DNA of 62,536 nucleotides, filler included, from Stramenopiles sp. TOSAG23-6 (lineage: Eukaryota): the NCBI GenBank assembly GCA_900128565.1. It is 11 parts of 11 records of this genome, joined end to end, with 100 filler letters (N's around TTAATTAATTAA, not from the genome) between each part and the next. Parts side by side here need not be neighbours in the genome. Positions count along the whole stretch, not along the records: positions 39,957 to 45,531 come from LT636875.1; 10 more parts are not named here. One strand, 5' to 3'. The stretch's first letter is position 1. The number at the start of each line of letters is the position of its first letter. A program made the position numbers and the translations under genes. Under the pieces are notes generated by a model, which was given only the letters and a program-made list of their open reading frames with translations, had not been told where the DNA came from and did no database searches. Of the stretch, positions 7,220 through 62,536 are shown one piece after another.

Positions 7220-7510
7220 TAATAAGTTGTATTTATTTTTGGTCTGTTTAGAGTTAGAGAGACTTCAAAAAAAAAGAAGACATTGAATTTTGAGAATTAT
7301 TGGATGATCGGTCCACGGTTACCCGGTAATGGTACATTGACGGTTACTTCTAACGGAAGAAGAAGACCTCTGGCAAAAACGTGCATTTACTTTCAGAATC
7401 AATTTCCAATTGTAAAGGTGCATCTACTTTTCAGAATCAATTTCCGATTTTGAGCAATAAAATACCAATTTGGAATAGTTCTAGCTCTAGCATATTAACT
7501 TTCGGGGGAA

Positions 7511-11326: not shown

Positions 11327-11503
11327 NNNNNNNNNNNNNNNNNNNNNNNNNNNNNNNNNNNNNNNNNNNNTTAATTAATTAANNNNNNNNNNNNNNNNNN
11401 NNNNNNNNNNNNNNNNNNNNNNNNNNTTTGGTAAAAAAATTGTTAGGTACAAAATTTCGTATGAAAAAAAACAATTGATAAAAATTCAATTTTCAAAACG
11501 TAC

Positions 11504-23077: not shown

Positions 23078-23476
23078 TATTTCAAACTCCATTGGGTTCA
23101 AAGAGTATATTATATATATGATATACAACCGAATTAGCTAATAATAAAATCATGGTAATATATTTAAAATTTAAATGTATGATATATATAATTGTAATAA
23201 AACTATAATCTATGATCTTCTCAGACGTATTTGAGTAATATAATTTACTATATAATTGTAATATTTTATAGATATGTACAAAACTGTCACATTTATGCTC
23301 TCCCTTTTTATTTTTCAGAATATGATGGCCTTCTTTTTTTTTGCAAGTTCGATTAGAGATGCATTTGAGATTGATGATTTCAGTTCGATTGAGTTGTTAG
23401 TTAAATAATTTCAAATTTCGAAATTGGTATTTTTATTATCAAATCTTAAAAATGAATAAATGAATGAGATTCTCAA

Positions 23477-26028
23477 TCATTTCATACCTCTCATTTTTTC
23501 TTTTTCATCTTCTTGTTCTTCTTTTATTTTAATTGATTCCCAATCGACCGAGACTTTCTTATTATATTTTTGAAAATTCGAATCTGTTTCTTTCTTTTGC
23601 CGTGTATTGTAAAAAAATATTGTAGAAAAAAAATTGTTAGATACGAAATTTCGTACGAAAAAAAAACAATTTAAAATTCATCATGAAATACGTACGTTGT
23701 TCCAAGTAATTTTGTCGGTATCCTACAACTGTATCTACATGTGTTTGATTCTTAGTAGCTAATTTTAGTGCTCTTTTCCATCGAAACAATCGAATATTTA
23801 ATTTAATTGCTCTATATATCATGGGTGGGGATGCTTGCAGCAAAATATTTTCGGCTTCATCAATGGCACCCCGATACACAGCTAATTCGGCATTTCTTCT
23901 TTCTTCAACTGGTATACCTTTCATATACAAAACAAATTGTAGTTTTGCCATTTCGGAAACTTTTGCAAGAGCTATTTCAGCAGTGCTAAGATGTCTACCC
24001 CACAATGCCATTGAAGCTAGTGCAGCCCAAAGTTCCTTCCTTTTCACAAATCTACACAATGTATTGTGAAAATATTTTTTTTGTAACAAAATTTGTTAGG
24101 TACAAATTTTCGTACGAAAACAAAATTTAATTTGAAATTTAATTTTGAAAACGTACATCGAACAGCTTCATTCCACTGCTGCTTTACAATAAATGCATAT
24201 AATAATGGTGGATACGGTGATACTGAAGCAGTAACAATGGATCCATCAGATTTTCTTACTGTAACCCGGGAACCAAAGTTTGAAACAATAAAAGGATGTT
24301 TACCAAAGCTTGCCGCATCACTGACAATTTTTGTTTGTTCAAGTAAGTCTTTATCCACATAAACGCTATGTGGATAAACCCATGTAACAAGTTTACCATC
24401 TGTACAAGCAGAGAGCATGAATTGTAAAAAAATATTTATTTTTTGTAAAATTTGTTAGGTACAAAATTTTCATAGTAAAAAAAACAAATTTTGAAAAAAA
24501 AAACATACATGTCAGAAGAATCATTCCATTCTGATGTATCGCACATGGTGACAAGCTTTACTGGTTTTTGTCCCAGTTTTACGACATAAAGATCACGATT
24601 TGAATCTACAAAAGAGATCATTGGATCTCTAGACTTTGTAAATTGACTCAAATCTAATTCTTGGATATCACGTGAATGCACTATAGGTTTACCTCTAGGT
24701 TGTCCTGTGTGTACATCAAACACTATGAAACTTTTACGCATCGACGAATTGAGAATTGCTATTTTGTCTGCACTGAGGGATATAGCACGCTCATTCAGCA
24801 TTTCTGCGCGCAATCCTTTAAATCTAGGATTAGACAAAACACGACCTTCATAATTATATACTTGAATGCCAGCAATAGCATTCACCATTACGAACAAACA
24901 ATCACTTTGAATAATCATTGTTGGAGGATGTCTTAAATCAAATATATGCGGCGTGTTATAGTTATCCACAGAGTAAATATGACATTGAGAAGATGTAGTC
25001 ACAATTAAATGACCAAATGCAATAGACATGTCAATCACACGGCTACGGAAATCAATTTTTTCACTGTTTTCAGTCATGCAATTCATTACTTCTATTCGAT
25101 TTGCATCGGTTAGAGTCACTTCAATGTTTTTCCATTCCAAACGTCGATTGACCAAAGTACTAATAATAACACTCCCAACGCCACCGGCACCAGCACAGCT
25201 TGTACCATCATCAGTCCACGCCAAGCGTAAAAGTGAACCACTCTGAAGTCGAGATCTTGAATAAGACCAACCTGTTTGATCACAGAGCCGAAGTAAGTTA
25301 TATGATCCAACAGAAAAACATTCACCAGTTGGAGACCAGGCGATAGAAGTAATGACATAGTCAAATGGGGCACTCGAGTACAAAAGACGCCCATATGAAT
25401 CCCACACTTTATATTTACAGTCTTCACCACATGAAATAATCTTACCATTCACTGGATTCCAGTCTGCTTCAGTGACAATACCATCGTGCGCTTTCCATTG
25501 AAGATGTTTCCGATCAATCTTTGTTGTTTTTATTAACAAATCCCGACCCTGGGTAAATAAAAGTTGATCATCATTAGGTGCCCATCGTACACTATATATT
25601 GGATGTTTTGATTTCATGATTGTGGCTCTTAACTGTCCCGTGCGGGAAAAAGTTTTCACTGCTCCATCCTCACCACCAGTTACAATTACATTTCCTTGAA
25701 AACTCCAACGAACGCAAATGACAGCACCACGATGAGCTTCAATTTTTTTTTCTATACGACCAGATTTATGTATCAGACAAAACGAACCATCTGTACACCC
25801 GGAAACGAACATATCTGCTACCATATTATGTGTTGTAGGCTGCCAATGAAGACTTGTTACATAAGTGTTAAATGTAACTAAAGTTGGTTTGAGGAGTTCT
25901 CCACTGGTTGACCACAGGCTGATTGTTTTATCATCTGATGCTGCAATTACTTCATTATTTGGAGTAAATTCAACTGCTGATACAACTTCGTCGTGATGCC
26001 GCTGTACTTTTGCAATATCAAGTCGCAT
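23477..26028 (-). CDS. IFT80: Intraflagellar transport protein 80; 4 exons
   Basis: WD40 repeats, GEDCKYKVWDSYGR, AVRLCRFVK after splicing, THVDTV; exons 26028-24509, 24416-24157, 24058-23696, 23601-23477. Confidence 0.95.
23602..23695 (-). other. GT-AC intron (IFT80)
   Basis: CAA C|GTACGTA...CAATACAC|GG CAA; the frame requires this length. Confidence 0.8.
24059..24156 (-). other. GT-AT intron (IFT80)
   Basis: CGA T|GTACGTTTT...CACAATACAT|TG TGT restores VRLCRFVK. Confidence 0.93.
24417..24508 (-). other. GT-AT intron (IFT80)
   Basis: GAC AT|GTATGTTTT...CAATTCAT|G CTC. Confidence 0.9.
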
Positions 26029-26331
26029 TTTACTTTTGCTAATTGTCCAGAAAGATAAAAACCGTAGTATAATTATCTACTTTGTCGGTTGAAAACCAAA
26101 TCTTTTTTGGAACCGTTATAACTTATAACGTCCTTTTTGAAACGAACACGAAATCTCAAAATCTCAAAAACAAAAAACCGTTACAAAATATATGACATCT
26201 TCCTTTTTTGATCGTCCAGAATGTTTACACACGGCTTTTTACTTTAACAAGATTCAATATTATTATATTATTATATTTTTCTGTACAACAAAGTAAATAA
26301 ATATAAACGAATATATACAAAAAAATATAAA

Positions 26332-28552: not shown

Positions 28553-29270
28553 TTTTCAACCATTTCTTTGTATGTATTTATATCTGTATTATTTTGATTA
28601 TTTTGATTATTTTGATTATTTTGATTCGTCTTAAAAACTAAATCCAAATTGTTAGGGTTAGGGTTGTTAGGGGTATCATCTAGTATAGCCCAACGATGAT
28701 CTCTACTATCACAAACAGCCCCATAACGCACTAAAAGACAACCCAATTCTTCATTTGCTGAGTTAATAGCAATGGTAAGCGGATGTATATTATGTCTACA
28801 ATATTTCATTTTTTTTTTAAATTATTTTAGTTTTTCATTTTTTTTTTTTCAATTTTTTTTTAATATTTCGTGTATTTCGTTGGAAAAAAAAAAAAGCTAA
28901 TAATCCTAAGTAAATAAATATTGAAAACATGAATATAACATGAATATATGTATGAATAATGAAAACATATATACCATTTAATGCGGTACAATTAGGATCT
29001 GCACCTAAATTTAGACATATTTCACATAAATTTAAATCATTGTGAAGAGCTGCCCATAATAGAGGAGTATATCCTGAAGCATCACAAATATACATTGTCA
29101 ACAATATTTCATTTTTTTTTTTTTAGTATTAGTACATTTGACTTTGGTACAACATTTAATTTAAAAAAAAAAAAAAAAATTTTGTTTAAAAAATTTTGGT
29201 TAAAAAATGTGTTACAAAAACCAAAAACCTTTTTTTTTTTTTTTTTTTTGATTAGGGTTAGGGTTATTTA

Positions 29271-29303
<33 letters not shown>

Positions 29304-30221
29304 AGTAAGACAAGAGTAATGAAAACATACATGCATTGATTCGAAATCTTCTTTACCAACCACAAGAGGTGTAAATGGTGTTCCATCTAAGGCAAGTGCA
29401 GATGTAATCTCTTGGTCAGTTGTGAATGTAACAAACGCAAAACCGCCTGTTGCTTTTTCCATATCTGATGATTTTGTTGTTTTTAATGATTTTAATGATT
29501 TTAATGATTTTAATGATTGTAATGATTGTTTAGTTTCTTTTTTTTTTGATCCGTGTTTTGTTCGACAACCAAGTTTTACTTGGTATCCATCTTGTAGTTG
29601 CACACCGCCATCAGAAAGCCATTGGATCACTTGTTCGGTTGTAGCAGTATATGGTAATTGTTGAATATAAACTTGTTTTCGATTTCGCCATCTCATTTTC
29701 TTTTTTTTTTTCGTTTTTGTGTTTTTTGTGTTTTTTGTGTTTTTTGTGTTTTGTTTTTGTATCAGATTATTTCCATTAAAGTTTTTTTGATGTCCAGACA
29801 TTGCATGGCTTGATACAGTACATTTTGAAGCAGAGTCATTCATGATAGTTTGTATTGTGTTGTTGTTGACCGGTGGGGAAATAATGTCATTTGAAAATGG
29901 AGAAACGTTGTTATCTCTGTTTGGGTGATTAGGGTTAGGGTTTTTCGTCTCTACTTTAGATTTCTTTGTCACTGGTTCTTGTTGAGTTCCTTCCATTATA
30001 GATTGTTTTAATGTATTGATAACACTTTCTTTATCGTTTCCAATTGGTAGTAACAACATTGCTTTTCGTTTACGCTTCGCTTTATCCTTATTTTTTCGAT
30101 TGCGTCTCTTTTTTTTTTCATCTTTTGCTTCTTTCAGTGAACGCTTTTTAAGCTTTCCATTACCACGACGAGTCTTTTTCTTGTGAATATCGTGGATGAT
30201 ACTTGTTTGTTCTTTAGTCAT
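28553..30221 (-). CDS. RRM + ankyrin-repeat protein (mirror copy of 32487-34155)
   Basis: Identical to the + strand copy. Confidence 0.65.
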
Positions 30222-31236: not shown

Positions 31237-31471
31237 GTATGTTTTATTTTTTTTCAAATTCAAATTTTTTTTTCGTACGAAATTTTGTACCTAACAAATT
31301 TTAGGTTTTTTTTTTTTCAAATTCCAATTTTTTTTTCGTACGAAATTTTGTACCTAACAAATTTTTTTTGAAATATTTTTCTGGAATTTGAAAAAAAAAA
31401 AACCTAAAATTTGTTAGGTACAAAATTTCGTACGAAAAAAAAATTTGAATTTGAAAAAAAATAAAACATAC

Positions 31472-32486: not shown

Positions 32487-33404
32487 ATGACTAAAGAACA
32501 AACAAGTATCATCCACGATATTCACAAGAAAAAGACTCGTCGTGGTAATGGAAAGCTTAAAAAGCGTTCACTGAAAGAAGCAAAAGATGAAAAAAAAAAG
32601 AGACGCAATCGAAAAAATAAGGATAAAGCGAAGCGTAAACGAAAAGCAATGTTGTTACTACCAATTGGAAACGATAAAGAAAGTGTTATCAATACATTAA
32701 AACAATCTATAATGGAAGGAACTCAACAAGAACCAGTGACAAAGAAATCTAAAGTAGAGACGAAAAACCCTAACCCTAATCACCCAAACAGAGATAACAA
32801 CGTTTCTCCATTTTCAAATGACATTATTTCCCCACCGGTCAACAACAACACAATACAAACTATCATGAATGACTCTGCTTCAAAATGTACTGTATCAAGC
32901 CATGCAATGTCTGGACATCAAAAAAACTTTAATGGAAATAATCTGATACAAAAACAAAACACAAAAAACACAAAAAACACAAAAAACACAAAAACGAAAA
33001 AAAAAAAGAAAATGAGATGGCGAAATCGAAAACAAGTTTATATTCAACAATTACCATATACTGCTACAACCGAACAAGTGATCCAATGGCTTTCTGATGG
33101 CGGTGTGCAACTACAAGATGGATACCAAGTAAAACTTGGTTGTCGAACAAAACACGGATCAAAAAAAAAAGAAACTAAACAATCATTACAATCATTAAAA
33201 TCATTAAAATCATTAAAATCATTAAAAACAACAAAATCATCAGATATGGAAAAAGCAACAGGCGGTTTTGCGTTTGTTACATTCACAACTGACCAAGAGA
33301 TTACATCTGCACTTGCCTTAGATGGAACACCATTTACACCTCTTGTGGTTGGTAAAGAAGATTTCGAATCAATGCATGTATGTTTTCATTACTCTTGTCT
33401 TACT

Positions 33405-33437
<33 letters not shown>

Positions 33438-34155
33438 TAAATAACCCTAACCCTAATCAAAAAAAAAAAAAAAAAAAAGGTTTTTGGTTTTTGTAACACA
33501 TTTTTTAACCAAAATTTTTTAAACAAAATTTTTTTTTTTTTTTTTAAATTAAATGTTGTACCAAAGTCAAATGTACTAATACTAAAAAAAAAAAAATGAA
33601 ATATTGTTGACAATGTATATTTGTGATGCTTCAGGATATACTCCTCTATTATGGGCAGCTCTTCACAATGATTTAAATTTATGTGAAATATGTCTAAATT
33701 TAGGTGCAGATCCTAATTGTACCGCATTAAATGGTATATATGTTTTCATTATTCATACATATATTCATGTTATATTCATGTTTTCAATATTTATTTACTT
33801 AGGATTATTAGCTTTTTTTTTTTTCCAACGAAATACACGAAATATTAAAAAAAAATTGAAAAAAAAAAAATGAAAAACTAAAATAATTTAAAAAAAAAAT
33901 GAAATATTGTAGACATAATATACATCCGCTTACCATTGCTATTAACTCAGCAAATGAAGAATTGGGTTGTCTTTTAGTGCGTTATGGGGCTGTTTGTGAT
34001 AGTAGAGATCATCGTTGGGCTATACTAGATGATACCCCTAACAACCCTAACCCTAACAATTTGGATTTAGTTTTTAAGACGAATCAAAATAATCAAAATA
34101 ATCAAAATAATCAAAATAATACAGATATAAATACATACAAAGAAATGGTTGAAAA
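32487..34155 (+). CDS. RRM + ankyrin-repeat protein; introns ~33378-33618 (GT-AT) and ~33738-33921 (AT-AT); 3' truncated
   Basis: RNP2 VYIQQLPY, RNP1 GFAFVTF; GYTPLLWAA and GIHPLTIA ankyrin units after splicing. Confidence 0.7.
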
Positions 34156-39769: not shown

Positions 39770-39980
39770 GTATGTTTTAATTTTTTTTCAAATTCGTTTT
39801 CTTTTTTTCGTACGAAATTTTGTACCTAACGATTTTTTTTTGAAATATTTTTCCAANNNNNNNNNNNNNNNNNNNNNNNNNNNNNNNNNNNNNNNNNNNN
39901 TTAATTAATTAANNNNNNNNNNNNNNNNNNNNNNNNNNNNNNNNNNNNNNNNNNNNAAAAAAAAAATTTTTAAAAAAAAA

Positions 39981-40014
<34 letters not shown>

Positions 40015-40035
40015 TGATTGATAAAAAAAACCTAC

Positions 40036-40729
40036 GGTAAATTTTCATGCTGGTAAAAAGTTTCTCCTAATAATATAGAGCAATTATCACATCGAAAGCA
40101 TTGCTTATGCCACTTTTTATTTAATGCAGTTATTATTGTACAAGTAATTGGTAATTGACAACTACAACAAGTAGAGGTACGAAGATTCACTATAGAGTTA
40201 CTATTACATGTATTGGAAAAAATATTTTTTTTTTTTTGGTGTAAAAAAAATCGTTAGGTACGAAATTTCGTATAAAAAATATTTTTTGCGAAATTAATAA
40301 TACAAACGTACTTGGATGATATATTTTCGAGTATGGTTCTGGTCTCCTTGCAAATGGCTTTTGTGTGTTTTTGTATTGTTTTGGAATAATTGAATATGGT
40401 TCTGGAGTCCTTGGAGTATTTTCATATCGTCTACTTGCATTCTGTAGAGCAATATTGATGGGTGTTTCTAAAGTGTTTTTTGTGTTTTTTTTATATTTTT
40501 GTAATTCTTCAAGTCTACATAAAAGCTGTAATTGTATTTCTGTATTTAGCAGAAGAGCAACAAGATCTTTTTTTTCAATACAATTGCTAGTATTAGCTGA
40601 TGCTACATGTAAAAGAGTTTTTAATGTCTTGACGGGTAAATTTGATACACGTTGCTTCGAACGAAGTATTTCAGGTAATTCTAGAAGTGTTTCTTTTTCA
40701 AAATGGCTAATTGACGCAGCGGCCCCCAT
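40036..40729 (-). CDS. LIM-domain protein with possible N-myristoylation start (MGAAAS); 3' truncated
   Basis: Exon 2 (40207-40036) encodes CCSC...ALNKKWHKQCFRCDNC. Confidence 0.8.
40208..40311 (-). other. GT-AT intron (LIM gene)
   Basis: CCA A|GTACGTTT...CCAATACAT|GT AAT. Confidence 0.85.
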
Positions 40730-41474
40730 TGATTTTTTCTATTACTTATTATTCGTGGTTTTTGTACATAACTACGAATGCAGTCCTACTTATCAATGGC
40801 ATCTTTCGTAAAATATGATACAATCTCAAATTAGATCTCACTCACACTTGTAAGTGGTGTCGCTTTACTACTATAAAAAAGTGAGTTTTGACCTGTGCTG
40901 ATCGATCGGTACGAGTAGTATCGTATATCCGACAGTTTCATTTCGAATGATGCCGATACCCGGTACTTGAAGAAATTTATTACATTACAATTTAATCGGG
41001 TAGTAAAGAAAAAAATATTGATGGTGTGATGCTTTACATGATGGCGAAAACAAAGAAAAAACATAAAAAGAATGACATTTTTAAAATAAACCAAGTTTTT
41101 CTTTTTAAAATTTGTTCATTTGTAAAAAAAGTGATTTTTTTTTTTAAATTTGTTCATTTGTAAAAAAAGTGATTTTTTTTTTTAAAGTTTGTTCATTTGT
41201 TCATTTGTATAATTGGATAGTATATATAGTAAAAAAAAGTGCTTACCCCTAGTACTGGTACTGACGATATCCTTTTCACCTGTAAGACCTGTAACGGGGG
41301 AACATCAGAACTCTGCTTCTTAAACCCTCTCAACTTCATCTTGGTCATGCCATTTCTAATAGTACTACTAATAGTACTACTAATACCAATAATAATAGTT
41401 GTCATTCCATTGTACGAGGTACTTTTCTTAATTCTGATGGTATAATAGAAAAAAATGGATATTGTATTACACAT

Positions 41475-42115
41475 TTGGTTCACACAGTTTCAATGGTATC
41501 GATTATTGTTGGAGCAACTCATTTAAAAGCAAAACCTGGTCAAGAGAATGAAGATCGTCGTTTTGTTCAAATTAACCAATTATTAGAAAAAATATGTACA
41601 ATCACTAGTAAAGAGATGGAGAATAATACAGATGTAGCTATTATTTTGTGTGGTAAGTTTTCATTCTTTATTTTGATTTTTTTTTTTAACTTTTCAAATT
41701 TCATAATGTAAACATATTTTTCTCAAATTTCAAAAGTGTAAACATATTATTCACCAATACATGCGATTTCAACACAGATCCATTTGATATAATAGATAAA
41801 CACAAAGCACGTGTAATACCAGCTATAATTAGTCATACAGGCTTAGATGTATGTAAACATTCTTTACGAAGTGCATACCCTCTACCTACAATTGGTGATG
41901 AGGAATCGTATACAACATGGAAAATGCGCAAAGGTAAAGAATCTCGTCACGTTATTGATTATATATTTCATAGTAAAGAATTACAACCAGTACAATTTTT
42001 AAATGCGCCAATATCGAATGATGTTGCACCATCAAGATTACCCGGTATACAATATCCTTCCGATCATATTTCAATTATGGTACAGTTTCAAATGAGTCGT
42101 AACAAAAGTAAGTAA
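41475..42115 (+). CDS. EEP (nocturnin/CCR4-like) phosphatase-nuclease, C-terminal part; start uncertain
   Basis: THLKAK, CGDFN after splicing, YTTWK.R, IDYIF, YPSDH. Confidence 0.85.
41653..41762 (+). other. GT-AT intron lacking the family core motif
   Basis: TGT G|GTAAGT...CCAATACAT|GC GAT TTC AAC gives CGDFN. Confidence 0.9.
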
Positions 42116-43395
42116 TAAAAAAATCGTTAGGTACAAAATTTGGTACGAAAAAAAAATATATATTTGAAGTTGAAAAAAAAAAATACATTCGAAATTGAAA
42201 TGATTTGAGAGTATTGTTTATTTTATTTTTTAACAATTAAAGAATCGATTCTTTTTGATCTTCACTCATTCCTAACTAATACACTTAATCATAGAAATAT
42301 GCTAAAGTTCCCTGGAGAAAAGTAATCTGAAATCGACAATGTAAACCCAACACCGAATACTCAATATTACCAAACATGTGTAATATTAGGGTTAGGGTTT
42401 TTACAGAGAAAACAAGAAAAAAATAAAAACAAACGAGGAAACTCAATAGAAAAACAGTACTAAATTTCATAGATGTACGCCAAAGCTATTCTAAGTTCCA
42501 CCAGGGAAATCTGAAGAAACAACTCTCAAGGGCAAATCGAAGAACCGGAAGACGTTTCAGAACGAAACTAATCAAGTTGGTTAAACGCAATTTTAATATT
42601 CCATTCTTGTAACAAACTGTGAAGTAAAATGAAGAACGTATCCTTCAGCAACACAATTCTGACATAAGTATGGGAAGGTAACACAATGTGAAGATAACAC
42701 GATATACAGATATATCGATTACGTCACAAGAGGTGTGGAAAAGAAGGAAAGAAAAGAATAGTTGAAAGAAATATAACAATGAGCTGGAATTGAACCAGCT
42801 GTCGAAACAAAACTGTACAACACAAAAACATCATATTATTGTCATACATTTTTGAATAGATAGAAGCCATTCCCAAAGTAAAAGGTGTCGTGGAGACACG
42901 ACGTAGAGTAAGCTCCGTTGAGTTGACCACAGAAGGTAGCACGACGTCTACAATCTGTGGTTAATCGTATAACTTTGTTTACACAAACAACTAGATGGTT
43001 CAACTGACAAAGCTCAAGCTCATATCGAAATACAAACCTTCACAGCTATACAGCGTACCTCTAGTCTCGTCAATGAAGACGGCCACTCTCTGGCTCAGTG
43101 TGCGGAGACTTTCCCCCGCCCGAAGGCGGAAACGATTCTTACGTCGGTCTTGAACACACGCACGCAAACAAACGAGAGAAAACAAAAAGCCAAAGCGAAT
43201 GAATGGTGAAAAATAACACGAGTTTTTGGAAAAATCAACTGACTCGAAAATTGAGTTGACCGCGTCAAAAAGACTGTCAAAAACTTCATATCTTTTTGCT
43301 TCAAATTAAAATTGTTATATTATTCTGTCTACGTACGTACAAATTAAGAGTGTTTTCATATATACCATGAAACAAATTTGTGTATATTATCAATC

Positions 43396-45109
43396 ATGAG
43401 TACACAAAAGAGTGGAGATGGCAATGGTGATAGTCTCTCCGTCGTCCGTGTCAAGCCTATTGGCGTTGGGGCAGGTGGAGTTGAGAAGTCAGTCACTGGG
43501 ATCTTGGATGGGGAGGGGGCACTCCGTTACTCAAGCAAACCCCCTCAAGTATCAGTCGTCAAATCAAAGACTGCGAAAACGTTTAAGTATCCTGCACATG
43601 TAATCACTCCTGATATAGATAATGCATCACTCTATGATATCTTTATGCCTCGGCGTGTGCAAGCTTTTCTAGATGGAGTCAACGTCAATGTCTTGGCTTA
43701 TGGTCAAACAGGCACTGGAAAGACACACACAATGTTTGGTACACCAGGAATAATGGCAAAGGCAAGTGCTGGTACATTCGGATTAAATATTTCTCCAGAT
43801 TATGGTCTTTTTCCTCGTGCCATTATTGATATATTTCAACGAGTGAAACAGCGTGGTAATAAATTTGTACTTACAGCTTCTTCAGTGGAGCTTTCAATGA
43901 TTCTAGGTAACCGAGATTTATTGACTTCTAGAAAGGGATCCAAATTGACAGGTATGTGGCAATCTAGCTGTAATGGTATTACCCTTAACAGAGACACAAA
44001 GCCTCCACGTCTGGTTGGAATGTACATTTTCAAAATAGAATATTTTAATTAGATTTTTTTTTCGTACCAAATGGAAATCTAAAAGTTTCATACCTAACAA
44101 TTTTTTCATTTTTTTTTTAAATTTCACAATACATGAGGGAAGTTGAGTTAACTGATGAGTCGTCAATTCTTGAAATATTCAAAGGCTTATCAGAACGTTG
44201 TACTTCAGCAACGTCATTAAATGATACAAGTTCTCGTACTCATTGTTTTGTATGGTAAATATTTTACTACATTTTTTTTTCTACCAAAATTTGTACCTAC
44301 TAGTAATAGTAGTAAGTAACAAAAACAATTTTTACTAATTTTTTTTTTTGAAATATTTTCTCAAAGTACATGTTTGGCTTACACTAAGAGCTTTTGATTC
44401 AACAACAAAATGTGTCAAAACATCTCGGTTTCAATTTGTAGATTTAGCAGGAAGTGAACGAATAAAAGATGCACATAATACATATAATTACAAAGAGGCA
44501 GGTTTGGAAGGTATGACTGGTATGTTGACAAATTATAGTTTAACTATGTTGTCAGCGTGTGTAAGGGCTGTATTTTATCCGATTTTATCATGAATTTCAA
44601 AAAAAATCAATTTTAAATTTTGTATGAAACAAAAACAATTCACCAATTTCGAATTTTAAATATTTTTCACAATGTATGTAGTACAGGCAAAACAAAAGGG
44701 TAAAATGAAGAACTTTTCTTTCAGGTTATACATGTTTGATGTAGTCCTTCTTCTCTCAGAGTCAATGACAGGTGCAGCATTAACTACAGTGTTTGTATGT
44801 GTCTCCCAGGAACTAAATAGTGCCTCACAATCAGTCAATGCATTGGACTTTGGAAAAGAATTTAGTTGTCTTGCTATAAAAAGACCTCGTGTTGTTCATT
44901 CAAAGAAGATAAATAAGCTCATTCGAGATACTACAGCTCAATTACAAGTCGCTCAGATAGCAGTAGAAAAGAATATTCCAGAAAGATTCAAAAAAATACG
45001 AACTGGACAAATTACAGATGCAAAACAGACTTTATACTACTTGAAAAAGTTTGCTGATGATACTACTACAACAACAACAACTACTACTATAGAGTCGGCT
45101 TCTAAATAA
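43396..45109 (+). CDS. Divergent short kinesin motor protein; 4 exons
   Basis: AYGQTGTGKTHTM, NDTSSRTH, FVDLAGSER. Confidence 0.92.
44022..44134 (+). other. GT-AT intron (kinesin)
   Basis: GGA AT|GTACATTTT...CACAATACAT|G AGG. Confidence 0.88.
44250..44371 (+). other. GT-AT intron (kinesin)
   Basis: TTT|GTATGG...AAAGTACAT|GTT TGG. Confidence 0.85.
44570..44677 (+). other. GT-AT intron (kinesin); alternative in-frame donor at 44561
   Basis: GCT|GTATTTT...CACAATGTAT|GTA. Confidence 0.75.
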
Positions 45110-45232
45110 CATTTTTTCTTTGCTGATTTTGAAGTAGGGTAATGTATTTATAAAGAAAATGTAAATTAAAAAAAAATCATAATAATCATAAAAATCATAA
45201 TAATCATAAAAATCAAATAATTACGTGTTTTA

Positions 45233-45496
45233 TTACTTAATTATAAGTCTTTTCTTACGCGCGCCATGTTCATATTTATCACAATGAGTATCGTATAATT
45301 TTTGAAGAGCCGTAATGTATTCATTCTTCACTTTATTAATTTCATCTTTTGTTGGATTTTTAACTTTTTTAACAGTGATTGGGGCACCAACTACAGTGGT
45401 GATGTTACATTTTCGGGGAAGGAAATGTCGTACAAGTGGCATACTTAAACCAAATAAATTTTGAAATTTTTTCTTTATAGCTTCAATGTACTGACC
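45233..45496 (-). CDS. DGAT2/MOGAT family acyltransferase, last exon
   Basis: ITTVVGAPI.V.K..NPT..EI......YI.AL..LYD; preceded by an intron end TTTTTACAATACCT. Confidence 0.8.
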   Translation of the reverse strand, partial: GQYIEAIKKKFQNLFGLSMPLVRHFLPRKCNITTVVGAPITVKKVKNPTKDEINKVKNEYITALQKLYDTHCDKYEHGARKKRLIIK

Positions 45497-46316
45497 AGGT
45501 ATTGTAAAAAATATTTTTTTTTTTTTTTTTTNNNNNNNNNNNNNNNNNNNNNNNNNNNNNNNNNNNNNNNNNNNNTTAATTAATTAANNNNNNNNNNNNN
45601 NNNNNNNNNNNNNNNNNNNNNNNNNNNNNNNAGACTAAGTGGTAGCACATCCAAGATAGCTGTTACACGTAAAAATAACAAATCAATTCGGCGTACGCTT
45701 AACGAACGAGTACCTGTACTAGAAGAACCTGGTTGAACATCGTATTTTCCACGCAGTAAACTACAGAAACATGCCAGTAAATGCGACGCGACTTCGTTAG
45801 GAAATTGCGCAGCAAGGGACCGTATGTACAAAAAAGCAGATAAATCACTACTATGACATATATGTGGCAACTTTTTTTCTATCATAGTATACATTTGGTT
45901 ACTACAATGCGAAGAAATTATTTGCATATACGTATAACTCAAATGTACCCCAGGACATTAGGGTGTGAATATATTTTATATCAGTAGTACAGGTAATCAC
46001 ACGCCTCTATTAGCATAATATAGCTACTAACTAGTTTTTTTAAACATCGGCCAGACAGCGGTCAGACATCGCGAAATTCGGAAATTAGACACGTGGCGGT
46101 CAGTACGCGAGTCGCGACACAATTCTTTCTCTCTTTCTTCTTTGTTGTTACACTAACAAGTGTCTCAACAAGACTGTATTGCAGATTTGTTCTTGCTCTC
46201 CCCGCAAGAGCTTTTGTTATAACTAGCCTCTAGGTTGGTTAATAACAGCTTCATTCTCTTAGGAGTTTGGGATTGCCGCCCGGTTGGGTGCCCGACTCCT
46301 TGTATTCGAAAAAGAA

Positions 46317-50860: not shown

Positions 50861-51359
50861 TGTGAATATTTATTGATTTTTAAAGTGAAAAAATTATTGA
50901 TGTATTAAAAGTTTATTTATTACCCGTTGGGAACACTTGCCCGGAAGATTTAAATTTCATTTTATGTGTACATTTTTGTCAAAATATTGTTAAGTAATAG
51001 AAATTCACCCTTTACGTTATCTGAAAAAGGCTCAACAAAGACGATGCCGCTTCTTCTTCTTCTAGTTTTTTATTAAAGGCATTTTCCAGAAGACCATTTA
51101 ACTTCATTGAATATCGGTAAACAAAGACATCCAGGAAATTGTGTCGAGATACTGGAAGCTCTACTCCCGGAAGTAAAGCAACAATTTTTTTTAGATTATT
51201 TTNNNNNNNNNNNNNNNNNNNNNNNNNNNNNNNNNNNNNNNNNNNNTTAATTAATTAANNNNNNNNNNNNNNNNNNNNNNNNNNNNNNNNNNNNNNNNNN
51301 NNAGGTACAAAATTTCGTACGAAAAAAAAAATTGGAATTTGAAAAAAAATAAAACATCC

Positions 51360-52061
51360 ATAGTCAGTAACATGATTAATCACAGCATATGCAATTTCTG
51401 CTTCTGCAGCAAGTTGTGCTTCTGGGACAGTAGTCATATTAATCAAATCAAGATTCCATTGTCTAAAAATATTGCTTTCAGTGCGTGTAGAAAATCTCGG
51501 TCCATTGATGGAAACAACACTTCCTCTCTCATGCAACTTTTTGGAAAATTCGGGATTTTCCTTTTTTTTATCTGCTATCATCTTGGAACACTCTGATATC
51601 AATATTTCACGAAGCACAGGACAAAATGGATCCGCGAGGCTAATATGAGCTACGCAGCCATCTCCAAAAAATGTACCCTCGCGCTGACCACCAGAGGTTC
51701 TGTCAAAGCTTCCATTTGGAATTGCTATGTCTCCTGGCCGGAAGTTTTCTTGTAAACTTCCACATGCACTTACAGAGATAAGCCATTTGACACCAAATTT
51801 CTTGAAACCATATATATTTGCACGGTAATTGATTTCTTGTGGTAATATGCCATGACCAACACCATGGCGAGCCAAAAACACAACGGAATGACCATGTAGC
51901 TTTCCAATGACATACGAATCACTTGGTGCTCCATAAGGAGTGCTTAGTGTAACTTTTTTGATATCTGTCATTTCAGGTAGATTGTACATACCACTACCGC
52001 CAATAATGCCAATATCAGCGGAATAAGCAAATGTATCCCTGGTATAATTTTCGCTCGACAT
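51360..52061 (-). CDS. MTAP: S-methyl-5'-thioadenosine phosphorylase, first exon; intron with GG donor begins at 51359
   Basis: IGIIGGSG, TPYGAPSD, FLARHG, NYRANI, GPRFSTR.ES, NMT..PEA.LA, VTDY. Confidence 0.95.
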
Positions 52062-52342
52062 TATCAAATAAATAGTTTAAACTTTATACTGTGGACTGAA
52101 TACTATTTTTTAGTCTTGTCGTACTAGTTATAGTGTATTGTTGGTGTCATGACATTTTGTGTGATTTGGATTTGCGGGTCAAGTTGAGAAAAACACGAAA
52201 TCATCACTTCGGCTTCCGTTACGTAGTAAAAACGGTCGGCGATCTTTGGAATATTTGTGGCCAACTACTACACGACTTACAGTAGCAATTTATCCAAGTT
52301 CAGTTTATTAAGGTTCGCTTTCACCCAAATTAAGGTTTTAGA

Positions 52343-55300
52343 ATGATTCCAAAGAGAACTGCAATGAGTCTCGCCAGAGAAAAGCTAACGGAATTTGAAA
52401 AGAAGCATGCTGTAAGCGCCAATATCTACAATATAAGTGAAACTAGTTTCTTGAATAAAATGAAACGAATCAACAACAGCAGTGAATTGTCTGATATCAA
52501 TATGCACGCAGAATTGACCGAAGCAGATGAAATGGTTGAACTTCTAAAGAAACGTTTGGGAGAAAAAGCAAAATATGAAAAATCACTTATGCAAGGTATC
52601 GAATCCGCAAAGTCGTCAGAAGACGTTTTGAGAGCACAACTAGACAGTGAGGTCCGAGCTCGAGAGCATGTTGAGAGACAGATCGAACAGCTTCAAGACC
52701 AGGTAAAAGAATATAAAAAATCTGTTGAACGCAACCAAAAGAAAGAAGTCGCGCAAGTCGAAGAAATCAATTCACTCGAATTACAAATGAAAGACTTGAA
52801 AATGACGTATGATCAAACAGTTGCAAAAGAGCACAAAGCTGAAATTAATCTTCATGAAAGTGAAAAAAGATCACGTGACCTTGAAAGAGAATTAATTCAT
52901 GTTCGCATTGAAAACGCTCGACTTCAAGAACAATATGATCTTAAACAACAAGAGTCTCATGAATTGGAACTTAAGTGCAGTACTGCACGAGATAAGTTAA
53001 TTCGGGAAGTCAACGCCACCAAAATTAAAGTCATCGCAATGAAGAAAAATTACGCGGAGTGCGTCGCTGATATCGAAAAACTTCAAGTAGATCTCAAAGA
53101 AGGGCAATCCACTTTAGAGAACTCAAAGGTAGAACACGAGAAGGCAAAGGCAGTTTTAGAAGCTACCCAGGCTGAACTTGATGCTCGACTTGTTGAAGAA
53201 GAGAGAGCAACGGAAATTTTATGTGCTGAGTTGACAGAAAAAAATAAGCAGGAAATGCACCTAACTGTTCAAATGGAAACATGTAAAAAAGCAAGAGTTA
53301 TGCTTTCTGAGACTCTGGCGGAAAAAACGGAACTAGCAGAGGATCTTGGTAAACGTCTAAGTAATCTTCAAGGGCATTTAGAAATTATGGAAGAACGAAT
53401 GGAAGAAAAATACAAGGAGAATAGTAAACTTGCAAAGGAACTCGAGCACACCGAATCGAATTTAAATTTATTGAAACTCCAGCTTAGCAAGGAAAGGCAC
53501 AATAAAGCTGAACAAGAACGAGCTTTAAAACGAGAACAGTCAAATGCTGCTATTATTCAAAGAGAGATTTTAGCAAGATCAAATACTGATAAACAAATGC
53601 TTACTGCTGTAAACGAAGCTGAAGTTAAGTCTCAAGATTTGTCAGATCAACTTCAAGCATGCGAAGAAGAGCGTCAAAAGTACTTGGCAGAAATTACTCA
53701 TACTAATGATAAAATGTATGTTTTACGCCAAAAATACGACGGCGTTCAAAAGGCTTTAAAAAATATGAAACTTAAACTTACTTTGAAAAAAGAAGAGTAT
53801 GATTCCATGGATAAAGAGTTGAAAAAGCGCTCAAAAGAGTTTGTGTTTAATGAACATGAAGCAAAGCTCAAAGCGACTGATTTGAGACATCAAATTGCAG
53901 AAAATACTGAAAGATTACAAGTCTTGAAAAATACGTTGGACTTAAATGAAATTAAGATCAAAGATTCAAAGAGTGTATTACATCAAGTTTGTGAAAATGC
54001 AGAATTTGAACGCCAAAATCTTAGCCAGCAAATACAAGAGCTAAAATCAGCCAACGCTTTGATCGCAACAGAAACTGAACAAGAAAAGCATAAAGGCAGG
54101 GCACTTGAGAATGATTTGATATCCGCAGAAAATCGTTTAAGAGAAGCCTTGGCAGCCATTGGCGCACAAGAGAAGAAGAGTCAAGGACTAAATATTGTGA
54201 ATCAAGAAGAGCAGGACAGAATGATGCAGCAACTCAGAGATATTACAGCACAGATTGATGATATGAATCAAAAGACAATGGATAATCGATCCGAAATTCG
54301 CGACTGGCAAGTAAAATTGAACGATACAAAGCAAGAAAAGATGCGTATTGAAGAACATCTCAGTAGTGAACAGGCCATCACAAAGAAACTTCGTGATCAG
54401 CTTGAAGAAAAGATGGACATTGGTCTTTCTCAGAAATCAAAGATTGCTATGCTGGAACAACATAATCACGACCTGGATATCAACATGTCTGCAATATCCA
54501 AAGAAGAAGAGAAGGTTCGTTGTGATGTTGACGAAATTCAGTCAAAGGTTGATGTACTGAAACAAGAGGTTCGTGATGCTGAATTGCGTAACCAAACATT
54601 TTACAATGAACAACAAGCAACGCATAGAACTATCATGGAATTAGAAAGCTCACTAAAAACACAGGAATCTCAACACATAGCAGATGCACGAGCAGTGAAG
54701 TTATCTATCGTATCTCTACAGGATGCTTTATTATCAAAGGTGAATATTGTTGAAAGTTTGGTACACTCAACTCGTGCCACACAGGCAAAAGCAAAGTCTG
54801 TACAGAAACGTTTAGATGATACTAATGCCGCGGCTGCGGCTTCTCAAGGTCGCTACCAGACAATGTTGATGGAAGAGCAACGTACTACAGCTGCACTACG
54901 GCAAGAAATTGAAACACAAATGCGCAATGAAAGAGTTCTGCAACAACATTTACTCAAGAAAGATCAACAAGGCCAAGAATTGCAAACAAAATTGGCGGAA
55001 CAAACTTCGCGGACAAGCATCATTCAGAGCGATGCGTTAACCAAACGAAAAGAAGCTGACATGGTTATGGCAAGTTTGGAGAAGAAGACTTCAAGAGAGA
55101 AAGAAATGATGTCGGCAATAAACGAGCGCAGTGAAGAAATATTGGGTTTTAGAACAAAACAGCGCGAAGAGGATATGAAAGAGAAACAGATTCGAACATC
55201 ATTGAAACAAACTGAATTCGAAAACAATTTACTGAAAAAGCAGATTGCAATAAAAATGAGATCAGAAAGAGTCGCACTAGTCGACATAGAGGCAGAGAGA

Positions 55301-55372
55301 GTGCATTTAAAACGTGATCCTGAAAATGAAGTAAATGAATTCAAAAACGGGAGCGAAGTTGGAAAAGTTTAA
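52343..55372 (+). CDS. Long coiled-coil protein of unknown function
   Basis: 1009-aa intronless ORF rich in E/K/Q heptads. Confidence 0.85.
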   Translation: MIPKRTAMSLAREKLTEFEKKHAVSANIYNISETSFLNKMKRINNSSELSDINMHAELTEADEMVELLKKRLGEKAKYEKSLMQGIESAKSSEDVLRAQLDSEVRAREHVERQIEQLQDQVKEYKKSVERNQKKEVAQVEEINSLELQMKDLKMTYDQTVAKEHKAEINLHESEKRSRDLERELIHVRIENARLQEQYDLKQQESHELELKCSTARDKLIREVNATKIKVIAMKKNYAECVADIEKLQVDLKEGQSTLENSKVEHEKAKAVLEATQAELDARLVEEERATEILCAELTEKNKQEMHLTVQMETCKKARVMLSETLAEKTELAEDLGKRLSNLQGHLEIMEERMEEKYKENSKLAKELEHTESNLNLLKLQLSKERHNKAEQERALKREQSNAAIIQREILARSNTDKQMLTAVNEAEVKSQDLSDQLQACEEERQKYLAEITHTNDKMYVLRQKYDGVQKALKNMKLKLTLKKEEYDSMDKELKKRSKEFVFNEHEAKLKATDLRHQIAENTERLQVLKNTLDLNEIKIKDSKSVLHQVCENAEFERQNLSQQIQELKSANALIATETEQEKHKGRALENDLISAENRLREALAAIGAQEKKSQGLNIVNQEEQDRMMQQLRDITAQIDDMNQKTMDNRSEIRDWQVKLNDTKQEKMRIEEHLSSEQAITKKLRDQLEEKMDIGLSQKSKIAMLEQHNHDLDINMSAISKEEEKVRCDVDEIQSKVDVLKQEVRDAELRNQTFYNEQQATHRTIMELESSLKTQESQHIADARAVKLSIVSLQDALLSKVNIVESLVHSTRATQAKAKSVQKRLDDTNAAAAASQGRYQTMLMEEQRTTAALRQEIETQMRNERVLQQHLLKKDQQGQELQTKLAEQTSRTSIIQSDALTKRKEADMVMASLEKKTSREKEMMSAINERSEEILGFRTKQREEDMKEKQIRTSLKQTEFENNLLKKQIAIKMRSERVALVDIEAERVHLKRDPENEVNEFKNGSEVGKV

Positions 55373-55505
55373 TTTATAACTTTGTTTTTCTTTTTGAAAG
55401 CAAAGGAAACAGAATTCTACATTCATTAACGAGAAACGACTTTGTACAATAAAAGTAGATAATATCCGAAATTATTGTAATATTTTATCATACTCAAATC
55501 TTAAA

Positions 55506-56775
55506 TCACATAGATAAAGCACGTTGTGTAATATCTCTACTAGTAGATGGAGTACTGTGCAATGCTTTATCAGAACCAGGGCTTCTAATTTCTTCAATAC
55601 TTTCACCATCATCCAAATCCACTTTATCTAATGCCGGTATTGTAGTTATCACTCGCATACCAAGCTCTGATACTTTGTGTCGAAAGTTAGAATCTGGACA
55701 AGTGATAAACATCATATTCATGGAAACTCCAAGCTCACGGGCAATCCATTGAACAGATGAAGGTGAGAATGTACCTGACATACAAATACACGAAACCTGA
55801 ATTTTCGGATAAATGCTGTCTAGCAATTGAACATGTTCATATAAGTTTTTGGGTACTCCCACTTCAGGATCATACACATGCACAACAAGCATTTTGGCAG
55901 TTTCTTCATTCTCTCGAACATAAAGTATAGCTTTATTTAGAATCACGAGAGAATCATTTTTTAGAAAAAATACTACCTTTTTATCCGCAATTTCCGCCAT
56001 CATTTGTTTAGCTGTAATATCCCAACGCTGGCGAAAACTTTTAAAATGTCTAAATAATTTGTAGGAACCTCGGAGGTACATCTTGAGTAAGAATGTTCTT
56101 TGAAACATTATCATCATTATTAAGGCTACAGCCGCTGTGTACATAAGAAAGTACTGCAATGCTGCACCTTTTGAAATTAAATTACCTACCACTCCCATTG
56201 CAGCACTTATGAGGGCAACAACAACCGTGAACCACGAGGCTTCTACTTGGCGTGGTAGTCCAGGTCGTTTGTATTTCAGTAGCATTGTGCCAATTGTGAA
56301 GCATATCATAAGTCCTAGAAATGCAAAACAATAGACACCACTTAAATTCTCTAAATTTATCTTGTGTGATATTCCAGTCAAAATATCGTACTGTAATACA
56401 ATAAGCAGAGATGATGCAACAACAAAATATCCAAATATAATATAATGGTTCGTACCTCGCCATGAATTTGTTTTAAGAAAAAATTGTGGTAAACATCGAT
56501 CTTGAGAAAGCTTACGAATTAAACCTCCGACGCCGACATATGCTGTTAAAACTGAACCAGATAAAACAATGAATGCGTCAATTGATACTAAAAGTTTAAG
56601 CCAAACATCAGAGATGATTATCGTTTCACTTGTCTTTGAAGGATAGTTTGAGGATACTGCAACTTCTCCCATAATCGCCAGAAGAGTTCCAGAGTTTTTA
56701 GGAATAGCAGTAAGTTTAATTGTACAGAGTGCTAGAAAAGTAATCATTGGGTTGAAGAAGCTTACAATGGCCCAC
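55506..56775 (-). CDS. APC-superfamily amino acid permease, last exon (AT acceptor at 56776)
   Basis: DAFIVLSGSVLTAYVGV.GL...DRCLP, L.GVY.FAFL, LNKAILYVRENE. Confidence 0.88.
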
Positions 56776-57029
56776 ATGTATTTTGAAACAATATTTCAAA
56801 AAAAAAACNTNAANTTGNTANGTANCAAAATTTCGTATGAAAAATAAATTCGATTTTTTTGTTAAAAAAAAANNNNNNNNNNNNNNNNNNNNNNNNNNNN
56901 NNNNNNNNNNNNNNNNTTAATTAATTAANNNNNNNNNNNNNNNNNNNNNNNNNNNNNNNNNNNNNNNNNNNNAGGTACAAAATTTCGTACGAAAAAAAAA
57001 ATTGGAATTTGAAAAAAAATAAAACATCC

Positions 57030-57731
57030 ATAGTCAGTAACATGATTAATCACAGCATATGCAATTTCTGCTTCTGCAGCAAGTTGTGCTTCTGGGACAG
57101 TAGTCATATTAATCAAATCAAGATTCCATTGTCTAAAAATATTGCTTTCAGTGCGTGTAGAAAATCTCGGTCCATTGATGGAAACAACACTTCCTCTCTC
57201 ATGCAACTTTTTGGAAAATTCGGGATTTTCCTTTTTTTTATCTGCTATCATCTTGGAACACTCTGATATCAATATTTCACGAAGCACAGGACAAAATGGA
57301 TCCGCGAGGCTAATATGAGCTACGCAGCCATCTCCAAAAAATGTACCCTCGCGCTGACCACCAGAGGTTCTGTCAAAGCTTCCATTTGGAATTGCTATGT
57401 CTCCTGGCCGGAAGTTTTCTTGTAAACTTCCACATGCACTTACAGAGATAAGCCATTTGACACCAAATTTCTTGAAACCATATATATTTGCACGGTAATT
57501 GATTTCTTGTGGTAATATGCCATGACCAACACCATGGCGAGCCAAAAACACAACGGAATGACCATGTAGCTTTCCAATGACATACGAATCACTTGGTGCT
57601 CCATAAGGAGTGCTTAGTGTAACTTTTTTGATATCTGTCATTTCAGGTAGATTGTACATACCACTACCGCCAATAATGCCAATATCAGCGGAATAAGCAA
57701 ATGTATCCCTGGTATAATTTTCGCTCGACAT
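57030..57731 (-). CDS. MTAP: MTAP (duplicate contig copy)
   Basis: Identical to 51360-52061. Confidence 0.9.
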
Positions 57732-58012
57732 TATCAAATAAATAGTTTAAACTTTATACTGTGGACTGAATACTATTTTTTAGTCTTGTCGTACTAGTTA
57801 TAGTGTATTGTTGGTGTCATGACATTTTGTGTGATTTGGATTTGCGGGTCAAGTTGAGAAAAACACGAAATCATCACTTCGGCTTCCGTTACGTAGTAAA
57901 AACGGTCGGCGATCTTTGGAATATTTGTGGCCAACTACTACACGACTTACAGTAGCAATTTATCCAAGTTCAGTTTATTAAGGTTCGCTTTCACCCAAAT
58001 TAAGGTTTTAGA

Positions 58013-61042: not shown

Positions 61043-61175
61043 TTTATAACTTTGTTTTTCTTTTTGAAAGCAAAGGAAACAGAATTCTACATTCATTAAC
61101 GAGAAACGACTTTGTACAATAAAAGTAGATAATATCCGAAATTATTGTAATATTTTATCATACTCAAATCTTAAA

Positions 61176-62445: not shown

Positions 62446-62536
62446 ATGTATTTTGAAACAATATTTCAAAAAAAAAACNTNAANTTGNTANGTANCAAAA
62501 TTTCGTATGAAAAATAAATTCGATTTTTTTGTTAAA

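Follow-up and report, generated by a model that had tools for sequence, protein, structure and literature searches.

Few signals in eukaryotic gene expression are as conserved as the terminal AG of introns, and to our knowledge the fritillariid tunicates are the only well-documented genomes with AT or AC intron ends on a large scale. The non-canonical introns of the larvaceans Fritillaria borealis and F. pellucida were reportedly described by Henriet et al. in 2019. Here, we analyzed a 62,536-nucleotide stretch of DNA from Stramenopiles sp. TOSAG23-6 (GCA_900128565.1; hereafter the window), in which a putative intron at 41653–41762 on the plus strand, within a nocturnin-like gene of the EEP family, starts with a canonical GTAAGT and appears to end in CAT. 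AT- and AC-ending introns as such are already known from Fritillaria; what is probably new is a pattern that combines a canonical donor with an A-pyrimidine end (GT–AY, where Y is a pyrimidine) in a stramenopile. According to the available text of the Fritillaria report (PMC13326754), 3′ AT is the commonest intron end (34% and 44%), followed by 3′ AC in F. borealis, and the introns terminate in a YAY triplet, another of which frequently lies immediately upstream of the 5′ site. The same text names introner transposons as one possible source of such splice sites, describes all intron classes as removed by the U2-type spliceosome, offers RNA proof for the introns, and implicates duplicated, divergent U2AF paralogues (PMC13326754).

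The window introns resemble those of Fritillaria in that all 21 counted here end in YAY (CAT at 41762) and in that 16 of them have A-pyrimidine directly upstream of the 5′ site. They differ in having a strong GTAYGT or GTAAGT donor, whereas the Fritillaria introns, in the text available, mostly have AG at the 5′ end and very diverse ends overall. The host is an animal in the one case and a protist in the other, and the introns of the window are predictions from DNA sequence. Fritillaria also retains GT–AG introns at conserved positions. Since the host of the window is a stramenopile protist, the likeness would be convergent. Introners, transposons that generate introns in Micromonas, Aureococcus, dinoflagellates and others (see PMC9860276) and resemble miniature inverted-repeat transposable elements (MITEs), also share features with the window introns in the sections accessible to us (PMC12130899, PMC11282704): both are short multi-copy elements in coding exons, bounded by terminal inverted repeats and by a duplicated target, within or beside which one of the splice sites is located. 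The introner curation criteria given there accept AG and AC 3′ sites (PMC12130899), but an AT-ending family is not mentioned in the accessible portions of PMC12130899 and PMC11282704, and the intron at 41653 is itself not detectably a family member. In Amoebophrya, >60% of introns are non-GT–AG and many are repeated elements whose borders are spanned by inverted and direct repeats; no dinucleotide pair predominates, the hairpins are 8–20 nucleotides long, and the G+C content is about 50% (PMC7789003, as far as its accessible part goes). In the window, by contrast, GT–AY predominates, the pairing between intron ends is weak, and the G+C content is about 27–39%. U12-type introns likewise need not end in AG, but their defining motifs, a 5′ site RTATCCTT and a branch site TCCTTAAC ≈10–15 nucleotides from the 3′ end, are missing from the window introns. 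The literature, with supplements and subscription papers outside the scope of the search, yielded no description of MAST-3 intron ends or of AT-ending stramenopile introns, and the available text of the MAST genome papers PMC5778133, PMC12614181, PMC8163842 and bioRxiv 10.64898/2026.04.17.719054 contained no statement on splice sites. For Incisomonas marina, a cultured member of MAST-3, PMC12614181 reports 93% BUSCO with a standard gene finder, which suggests conventional introns in that species.

The intron at 41653–41762 separates two coding exons. The upstream exon (41295–41652, +, with a provisional 5′ limit; open reading frame 41295–41711; profile positions 243–325) ends in ...VAIILC and the first base of a glycine codon; it is preceded by an in-frame TAA at 41292–41294, with no ATG before the domain. 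The downstream exon (41763–42115, +) encodes (G)DFNTDPFD...YPSDHISIMVQF..., ends at a TAA at 42113–42115, and is 45–53% identical to seven homologues. Taken alone, this exon matched the human nocturnin chains in the PDB with E = 7e-14, and the homologue P0003 matched nocturnin (6MAL/6BT1) with E = 1e-35. The match of the exon to Pfam PF03372 (E = 0.041) was below the cut-off, and PF03372 is carried by all but one of the longer homologues. The C-terminal motifs THLKAK, GDFN and SDH are all retained, GDFN being present only after GT–AT removal. The presence of GDFN and SDH is shared with the nocturnin/CCR4-type EEP deadenylase-phosphatases (PDB 6MAL, 6BT1), and the PDB matches support the nocturnin-like identity implied by an earlier note on this DNA, which had spoken of the GDFN of EEP enzymes and of nocturnin/CCR4-like orthologues. 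Unlike the complete enzymes, the locus has only the C-terminal part, and no N-terminal metal-binding part was found there. A weak match to FITLQFN lies at 40952–41008 (E = 6.2). Three tandem copies of a 38-nucleotide AT-rich unit (TTTT..AAATTTGTTCATTTGTAAAAAAAGTGA) occupy 41097–41211, just upstream of the exon, where N-terminal coding sequence is expected.

Read directly, the donor context is ...ATT TTG TGT G/GTAAGT at 41653, with the intron starting GTAAGTTTTCATTC, and the 5′ splice site (41653–41658, +) is complementary to U1 and GTRAGT-like. The intron is 110 nucleotides long, in phase 1, and reads GTAAGT...CAATACAT. Its 3′ end (41749–41762, +), TTCACCAATACAT with the terminal CAT, resembles the 3′ consensus TTTTCACAATACAT of the repeat family described below, and not the terminal AG of U2-type introns. 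The 3′ context is ...CACCAATACAT/GC GAT TTC AAC, or, written differently, ...TTATTCACCAATACAT/GC GAT TTC AAC, with 41762 as the last intron base. Removal of 41653–41762 gives ILCGDFNTDPFD, also given as VAIILCGDFNTDPFD and as part of ...DVAIILCGDFNTDPFDIIDKHKARVIPAII..., and restores the catalytic motif. After exact removal, the open frame extends for 119 codons on one side and 116 on the other, compared to no more than nine when the acceptor is shifted by one or two bases. Within the intron, 41696–41755 (+) is a tandem duplication of 30 nucleotides, of which the two units (41696–41725 and 41726–41755; AAATTTCA..GTAAACATATT..TTC) are 73% alike.

The alternative registers were translated in the same way. 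With the GTAAGT donor, the AG at 41735–41736 (+), which lies 26 nucleotides before the intron end and would have to be skipped, leads to ILCV and a stop; the downstream AG at 41776–41777 is in frame, but gives ILCDPFD, with GDFNT lost. A two-base leftward shift of both ends produces TTG TGA, a stop. These points, and the catalytic GDFN obtained by GTAAGT...AT removal, agree with what the earlier note had read from the sequence, and motif position lists likewise confirmed its statement that no CGTACG/CCTAAC core occurs inside 41653–41762. Its claim that the register is fixed as GT–AT stands with respect to the two-base shift, which runs into the stop, but not with respect to a one-base shift, since TA..TG (41654–41763) yields an identical mRNA. 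Similarly, the two AG sites that it had dismissed do give the products it named, but it had missed a second open GT–AG pair, from a donor GTTTTC at 41657 to the AG at 41736 (80 nucleotides), which keeps DFN behind an insertion of 11 residues.

Every donor in 41620–41699 was combined with every acceptor in 41700–41799, and the 8000 pairs gave 1393 distinct open in-frame products. Scored against seven homologues, the product of 41653–41762 ranked 1 of 1393, a rank common to the TA..TG and AA..GC registers, which encode the same protein. The best GT–AG product (41657 to 41736, ...LCGNVNILFTNTCDFN...) ranked 166 of 1393, and that from GTAAGT to the AG at 41777 ranked 1079. In tblastn, the homologue alignments stop at ...LCG (41654) and restart at DFNTDPFD (41765) with no residue lost, and the residue numbers of the homologues run unbroken across the gap (470 to 471 in P0002, 307 to 308 in P0003, 50 to 51 in P0129). 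The homologues P0001–P0005, P0128 and P0129 are 45–53% identical in exon 2; for six of them the alignment covers exon 1 as well (33–44%), and P0128 aligns to exon 2 only. The motif [GA]DFNT[DE] occurs without a preceding insertion in 7/7 of the homologues P0001–P0007, as does GDFNAEP in human nocturnin. On this comparison, only the GT...AT register aligns to every homologue without a gap. Two related loci in metagenome contigs (L001 and L002) are distant and G+C-rich, and were uninformative on the position of this intron; a search of a 5.8-billion-protein collection with exon 2 returned no protein from the same organism.

Donor and acceptor weight matrices were trained on the 20 other introns and applied to 41500–41899. 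The donor at 41653 scored 5.3 bits and the acceptor 9.5 bits, each ranking second in this interval, while the rival donor at 41657 scored −4.2 and the AG sites at 41736 and 41777 scored −26.6 and −10.8, respectively. Both scores of the intron are lower than those of most family members.

The GT–AY product was also favored by homology at the remaining junctions tested, so that the agreement extends to 7/7 (one in the EEP gene, three in IFT80, and three in a kinesin gene). The three IFT80 introns are at 24417–24508 (−; GTATGT...ATTCAT, 92 nucleotides), where ...SSDM/LSAC... is gap-free against 11 homologues, at 24059–24156 (−; GTACGT...ATACAT, 98 nucleotides), of which the removal restores the invariant RLCRF, and at 23602–23695 (−; GTACGT...ATACAC, 94 nucleotides), the sole AC-ending case. 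The top products were those with 92, 98 and 94 nucleotides removed, and their registers include GT–AT, GT–AT and GT–AC. The resulting model of 756 amino acids has no gaps at the three junctions relative to the 11 homologues, which range from stramenopiles to vertebrates and include one that is 79% identical, and has the invariant RLCRF/Y restored. The best match, P0008, labelled “GSMAST32.ASY1.ANO1.832.1 assembled CDS” (EukProt), is a public model that is letter-identical to the window (23400–26031, −) over blocks of 113 and 374 residues. At the junctions, it reads into the introns (SSDMYVFFFKI...), RLCRF becomes R-CTF, and four residues are dropped at the third junction; a spurious intron call costs it a further 20 residues (VIVTGGEDGAVKTFSRTGQ...). 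Compared with the homologues, this public model is wrong at all three introns, with indels at each junction, and proteomes of these protists, as used in ecology and phylogenomics, are probably degraded as a consequence. Behind P0008 come two unnamed proteins with 79% and 58% identity, followed by oomycetes, algae and animals at 42–50%. As we read the label of P0008, the host is a MAST-type marine stramenopile. A tunicate origin was considered and rejected on these protein matches, and an Amoebophrya origin was rejected on G+C content.

In the kinesin gene, for which the homologues were gathered with one exon as the query, the GT–AT product was on top at all three junctions. Intron 1 (44022–44134, +; GTACAT...ATACAT, 113 nucleotides) gave the top of 585 products, with the best GT–AG product at rank 17, but AT precedes this intron too, leaving its register ambiguous. 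The corresponding numbers were 568 products and rank 44 for intron 2 (KIN_2; 44250–44371, +; GTATGG...GTACAT, 122 nucleotides; exon end TT in ...TGTTTT), and 626 products and rank 81 for intron 3 (KIN_3; 44570–44677, +; GTATTT...ATGTAT, 108 nucleotides; exon end CT in ...GGGCT). The starts of the last two are as the earlier note had given them when it cited their exon ends as pointing the same way. Kinesin intron 3 had no match to the family profile.

Altogether, 22 candidate introns were considered: the one at 41653, three each in IFT80, kinesin and Tsr1, two each in CPSase and a protein kinase, one after YaaA, and seven in unnamed genes. Exact removal from GT to A-pyrimidine joined longer open frames than acceptors shifted by one or two bases in 20 of the 22, the exceptions being c2256, of which the 3′ end was reset 4 nucleotides upstream to another CAT after the test, and CPS_9872, which has a downstream exon of just 28 codons. 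The counts below refer to 21 introns, the one at 41653 included. The kinase intron at ~1301–1408 (−) was left out of them, its family-aligned 5′ end being ATAAGT and a GT..AG pair (111 nucleotides) being equally open, as was the second kinase intron at ~1017–1139 (−), which by eye reads GT..TATAT.

The 21 introns are 90–128 nucleotides long (mean 103). The 5′ site has the composition G21 T20 A20 Y20 G19 T19, followed by TTT, and the first dinucleotide is GT in 20 introns and GC in one. The last two bases are AT in 20/21 and AC in 1/21; the last three are CAT in 17, TAT in three and CAC in one, and thus YAY throughout. The first exon base after the intron is G in 14/21. A CTAAC motif is found 34–46 nucleotides before the intron end in 16/21, followed by a T-rich tract. 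Six introns have an AG within their last 31 nucleotides that would have to be skipped (the one at 41653, KIN_2, PK_1734, Tsr1_34866, c36723 and c39319). The earlier note had proposed the AT acceptor as a general splicing requirement; the non-AG end is indeed found in 21/21 introns, but the rule is A-pyrimidine instead of AT, given the one AC end. The two exon bases before the intron are AT in 14 introns, AC in two, and others in five. Because AT precedes GT in 14/21, registers of AT...AC or TG...CA would give the same mRNA in these, which makes the intron at 41653 useful for establishing the register. The two-base shift is also impossible for KIN_2 (TT), KIN_3 (CT), the intron after YaaA (TT), c40213 (AA), and c2735, which has AC before an AT-ending intron.

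Several further copies deserve mention. The two kinase introns flank a DFG mini-exon; that at ~1301–1408 (−) has ACAG four bases beyond its ACAT, and that at ~1017–1139 (−) is bordered on each side by an 8-base repeat, AATATATG, and its removal restores GTLEYMPPE. Aligned 5′ ends with a first dinucleotide other than GT include GCATGT at 38844 (+), where 288 and 48 codons stay open after removal, and GGATGT in family copies on contig edges; non-GT copies are listed at 51341 (−), 57011 (−) and 11303 (−). One of these eukaryotic contigs encodes YaaA, a bacterial-type peroxide-stress protein (6395–7264, −; PF03883, E = 5e-67), and a family-type intron comes after it.

For the introner-like repeat family of the window, with copies of ≈100 nucleotides, a profile was built from seven copies bearing the core (nhmmer). 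There were 40 profile matches at E < 0.01 in the 62.5 kb; many are at contig ends, and contig ends are often inside copies. The family consensus is GTAYGTTTT...CGTACG..TTGTACCTAAC...T-rich...CACAATACAT, and its ends, (C)ATGTA...TACAT(G), form short inverted repeats, often flanked by repeated AT or ATG. The core had 0 matches in viral contigs. End-to-end pairing is weak, with a mean of −3.6 kcal/mol compared to −2.4 kcal/mol for shuffled 3′ ends; for the intron at 41653 the values were −4.1 and −4.7, i.e., there was no effect.

The relationship of the intron at 41653 to this family is visible at its ends. The intron gave no match to the profile even with nhmmer --max at E ≤ 10, at which there were 80 matches elsewhere. 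Its first ten bases, GTAAGTTTTC, nevertheless match the family consensus GTAYGTTTTC at 9/10, and its last ≈14 bases are the family end with one inserted C. It is preceded by GTG, without the A-pyrimidine repeat of the intron end that is present as AT or AC in 16/21. The intron may be an old family copy with a decayed interior and both ends kept, which is the simplest reading, and not one of independent origin. A decayed interior with kept ends would point to selection on the ends, CAT included. The earlier note held that the AT end is not just a relic of the young element: the missing profile match and core agree with this, but the termini are family-like, and independence from the family was not supported. 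A reverse-orientation family copy (42116–42187) directly follows the stop codon of the EEP gene. Because the termini of the family are inverted repeats, this copy still reads GTAAGT...AAATACAT on the plus strand, and its splicing out of the EEP transcript, with a change of the C-terminus, is in principle conceivable.

We consider it likely that the nocturnin-like gene has a genuine spliceosomal intron at 41653–41762, most likely of the U2 type, with a canonical 5′ site and a non-AG 3′ end. A broader proposition, toward which we lean with rather less assurance, is that MAST-3-like uncultured marine stramenopiles have replaced AG by pyrimidine-A-pyrimidine 3′ sites (CAT >> TAT or CAC) in most or all introns, and that these arose from a ≈100-nucleotide MITE-like introner with a GTAYGT donor, as a convergent counterpart of Fritillaria. 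The intron at 41653 would be the clearest single witness of such a lineage-wide GT–AY splicing code. In this scheme, the introns seen today would be ≈100-nucleotide descendants of the introner, which usually sits behind an AT (or AC) that repeats the last two bases of the intron. Insertion would duplicate an AT-containing target, and exact restoration of the exon would then require a cut after the second AT. The spliceosome would cut after a pyrimidine-A-pyrimidine triplet, with CAT much preferred over TAT or CAC, and pass over AGs on the way. The strong U1-type donors, the yeast-like CTAAC with its T-rich tract, and the lengths of 90–128 nucleotides indicate that excision would occur at the RNA level by a U2-type spliceosome, with the CTAAC 34–46 nucleotides upstream as the presumed branch site and altered recognition of the 3′ site, e.g., through changes in U2AF or in second-step factors.

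Several observations weigh against this interpretation. The intron at 41653 has no CTAAC, and its sole YTRAY matches are 73 and 86 nucleotides from the 3′ end, in a T-rich region. No near-identical junction-spanning protein was found in the 5.8-billion-protein collection, in which the relatives of exon 2 are only 30–53% identical. Five seawater metatranscriptome runs contained no more than 0.05–0.11 of the sampled words of 39957–45531, and give no evidence of expression or habitat. The 3′ ends of the other introns had been set by eye on the family alignment before their frames were tested, and open GT–AG alternatives, mostly with deletions of a few codons, exist for 21 of the 22 candidates, so that the frame by itself fails to exclude AG; such small deletions are presumably how a gene finder copes. 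The exclusion of AG comes from homology alone, applied at seven junctions. The EEP locus encodes only positions 243–430 of a 432-position profile made from five homologues, i.e., the C-terminal ≈45% of the enzyme, and a profile search in six frames of the contig and the whole window did not find the N-terminal half of the catalytic domain. The gene may therefore be fragmentary, a pseudogene, or a result of chimeric contig assembly. Moreover, the contig at 28553–34155 differs from its own reverse complement at just 31 positions, all of them within 31327–31381; it is thus a near-perfect palindrome and looks like an amplification chimera. The contigs at 51303–56872 and 56973–62536 show 0 mismatches along 5,564 bases, the same sequence being filed twice. 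Palindromic and duplicated contigs would be typical artefacts of amplified single-cell DNA, and in view of them, a pseudogene and a contig that is chimeric or incomplete are equally likely.

These observations bear most directly on the possibility that the EEP locus is an unexpressed, truncated pseudogene or an assembly chimera, in which case the GT...AT gap would be an intron fossil or an insertion, silent on present-day splicing. The missing N-terminal half, the exon without a start codon, the 38-nucleotide tandem repeat and AT-rich filler upstream, the palindromic and duplicated contigs, and the failure to find a matching transcript-derived protein in the 5.8-billion-protein collection all speak for it. 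However, long decay is disfavored because 235 codons (119 + 116) are open after splicing in DNA of ≈30% G+C, where an estimated ≈8% of random codons are stops, and THLKAK, GDFN and SDH are all kept. Even a fossil would record a register that was once under selection, and the same rule is seen in IFT80 and kinesin. We regard this explanation as unlikely, although it deserves more weight than the others. Conventional AG splicing, whether from 41657 to 41736 (80 nucleotides, ...LCGNVNILFTNTCDFN) or from GTAAGT to 41777 (...LCDPFD, which would be catalytically dead), has in its favor that both products are open and in frame, that AG is the rule in almost all eukaryotes, and that alternatives of this kind keep the frame for nearly all candidates (21/22). 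It is nevertheless very improbable in view of the homology ranks (166 and 1079 of 1393), the 11 residues inserted by the former product, compared to none in the seven homologues and human nocturnin, and the catalytic D and N deleted by the latter. The weight matrices give the donor at 41657 and both AG sites negative scores, and the AG-based public model of IFT80 destroys the invariant RLCRF.

The inverted-repeat termini with their flanking AT or ATG repeats would also suit a non-spliceosomal removal, either as transposon-like excision at the DNA level or as a structure-guided, nonconventional excision of RNA by end pairing. This is more doubtful still, since near-perfect spliceosomal donors (GTAYGT or GTAAGT) are found in 19–21 of the 21 introns and CTAAC with a T-rich tract in 16/21, while the ends hardly pair beyond what shuffled ends do (−3.6 and −2.4 kcal/mol; −4.1 and −4.7 kcal/mol at 41653). 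Finally, the family introns might be U12-type AT–AC introns read two bases to the left (/ATGTAYGT...TAC/AT), with the intron at 41653 as an exception. An AT...AC register does give the same mRNA in the 14 introns preceded by AT, and the related stramenopile Blastocystis has, according to the accessible text of PMC10639083, many AT–AC minor introns. However, five of the 21 introns have no A-pyrimidine upstream (GTG at 41653, TT in KIN_2, CT in KIN_3, TT after YaaA, and AA in c40213), c2735 is preceded by AC yet ends in AT and cannot be shifted, and the shift creates a TGA at 41653. The 5′ ends (ATGTAYGTTTT) also misfit the U12 motif, and the CTAAC is 34–46 nucleotides from the end instead of ≈10–15. 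Of the explanations considered, this is the one to which we give the least credence.

If the GT–AY interpretation is true, a second, unrelated lineage with a normal GT donor would separate the question of the 3′ site from that of the 5′ site, and would show that introner invasions can repeatedly drive a spliceosome to adopt a new 3′ code. A comparison of the lineages could then test which factors change (the U2AF1/U2AF2 subunits, of which U2AF1 reads AG through zinc-finger residues, and Slu7/Prp18/Prp8), and standard gene finders would mis-annotate such genomes.

The window itself consists of 11 contigs in falling order of length, from 5,613 down to 5,564+ bases, with a G+C content of 27–39%. 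The contigs are joined by N44-TTAATTAATTAA-N44 spacers (5614–5713, 11327–11426, and onward to 56873–56972), and the EEP and kinesin genes are on the contig at 39957–45531. Short interstitial runs of telomere-like TTAGGG/CCCTAA are present at 28652–28672, 29252–29263 and 29929–29940, at mirror sites in 32768–34056, and at 14454 and 42386–42397. Overlapping low-complexity open reading frames at 12.5–13.5 kb were uninformative. Between the EEP gene and kinesin there is an RNase MRP RNA gene (42895–43150, −), which matched Rfam RF00030 over the full model length with 82.3 bits (gathering score 50).

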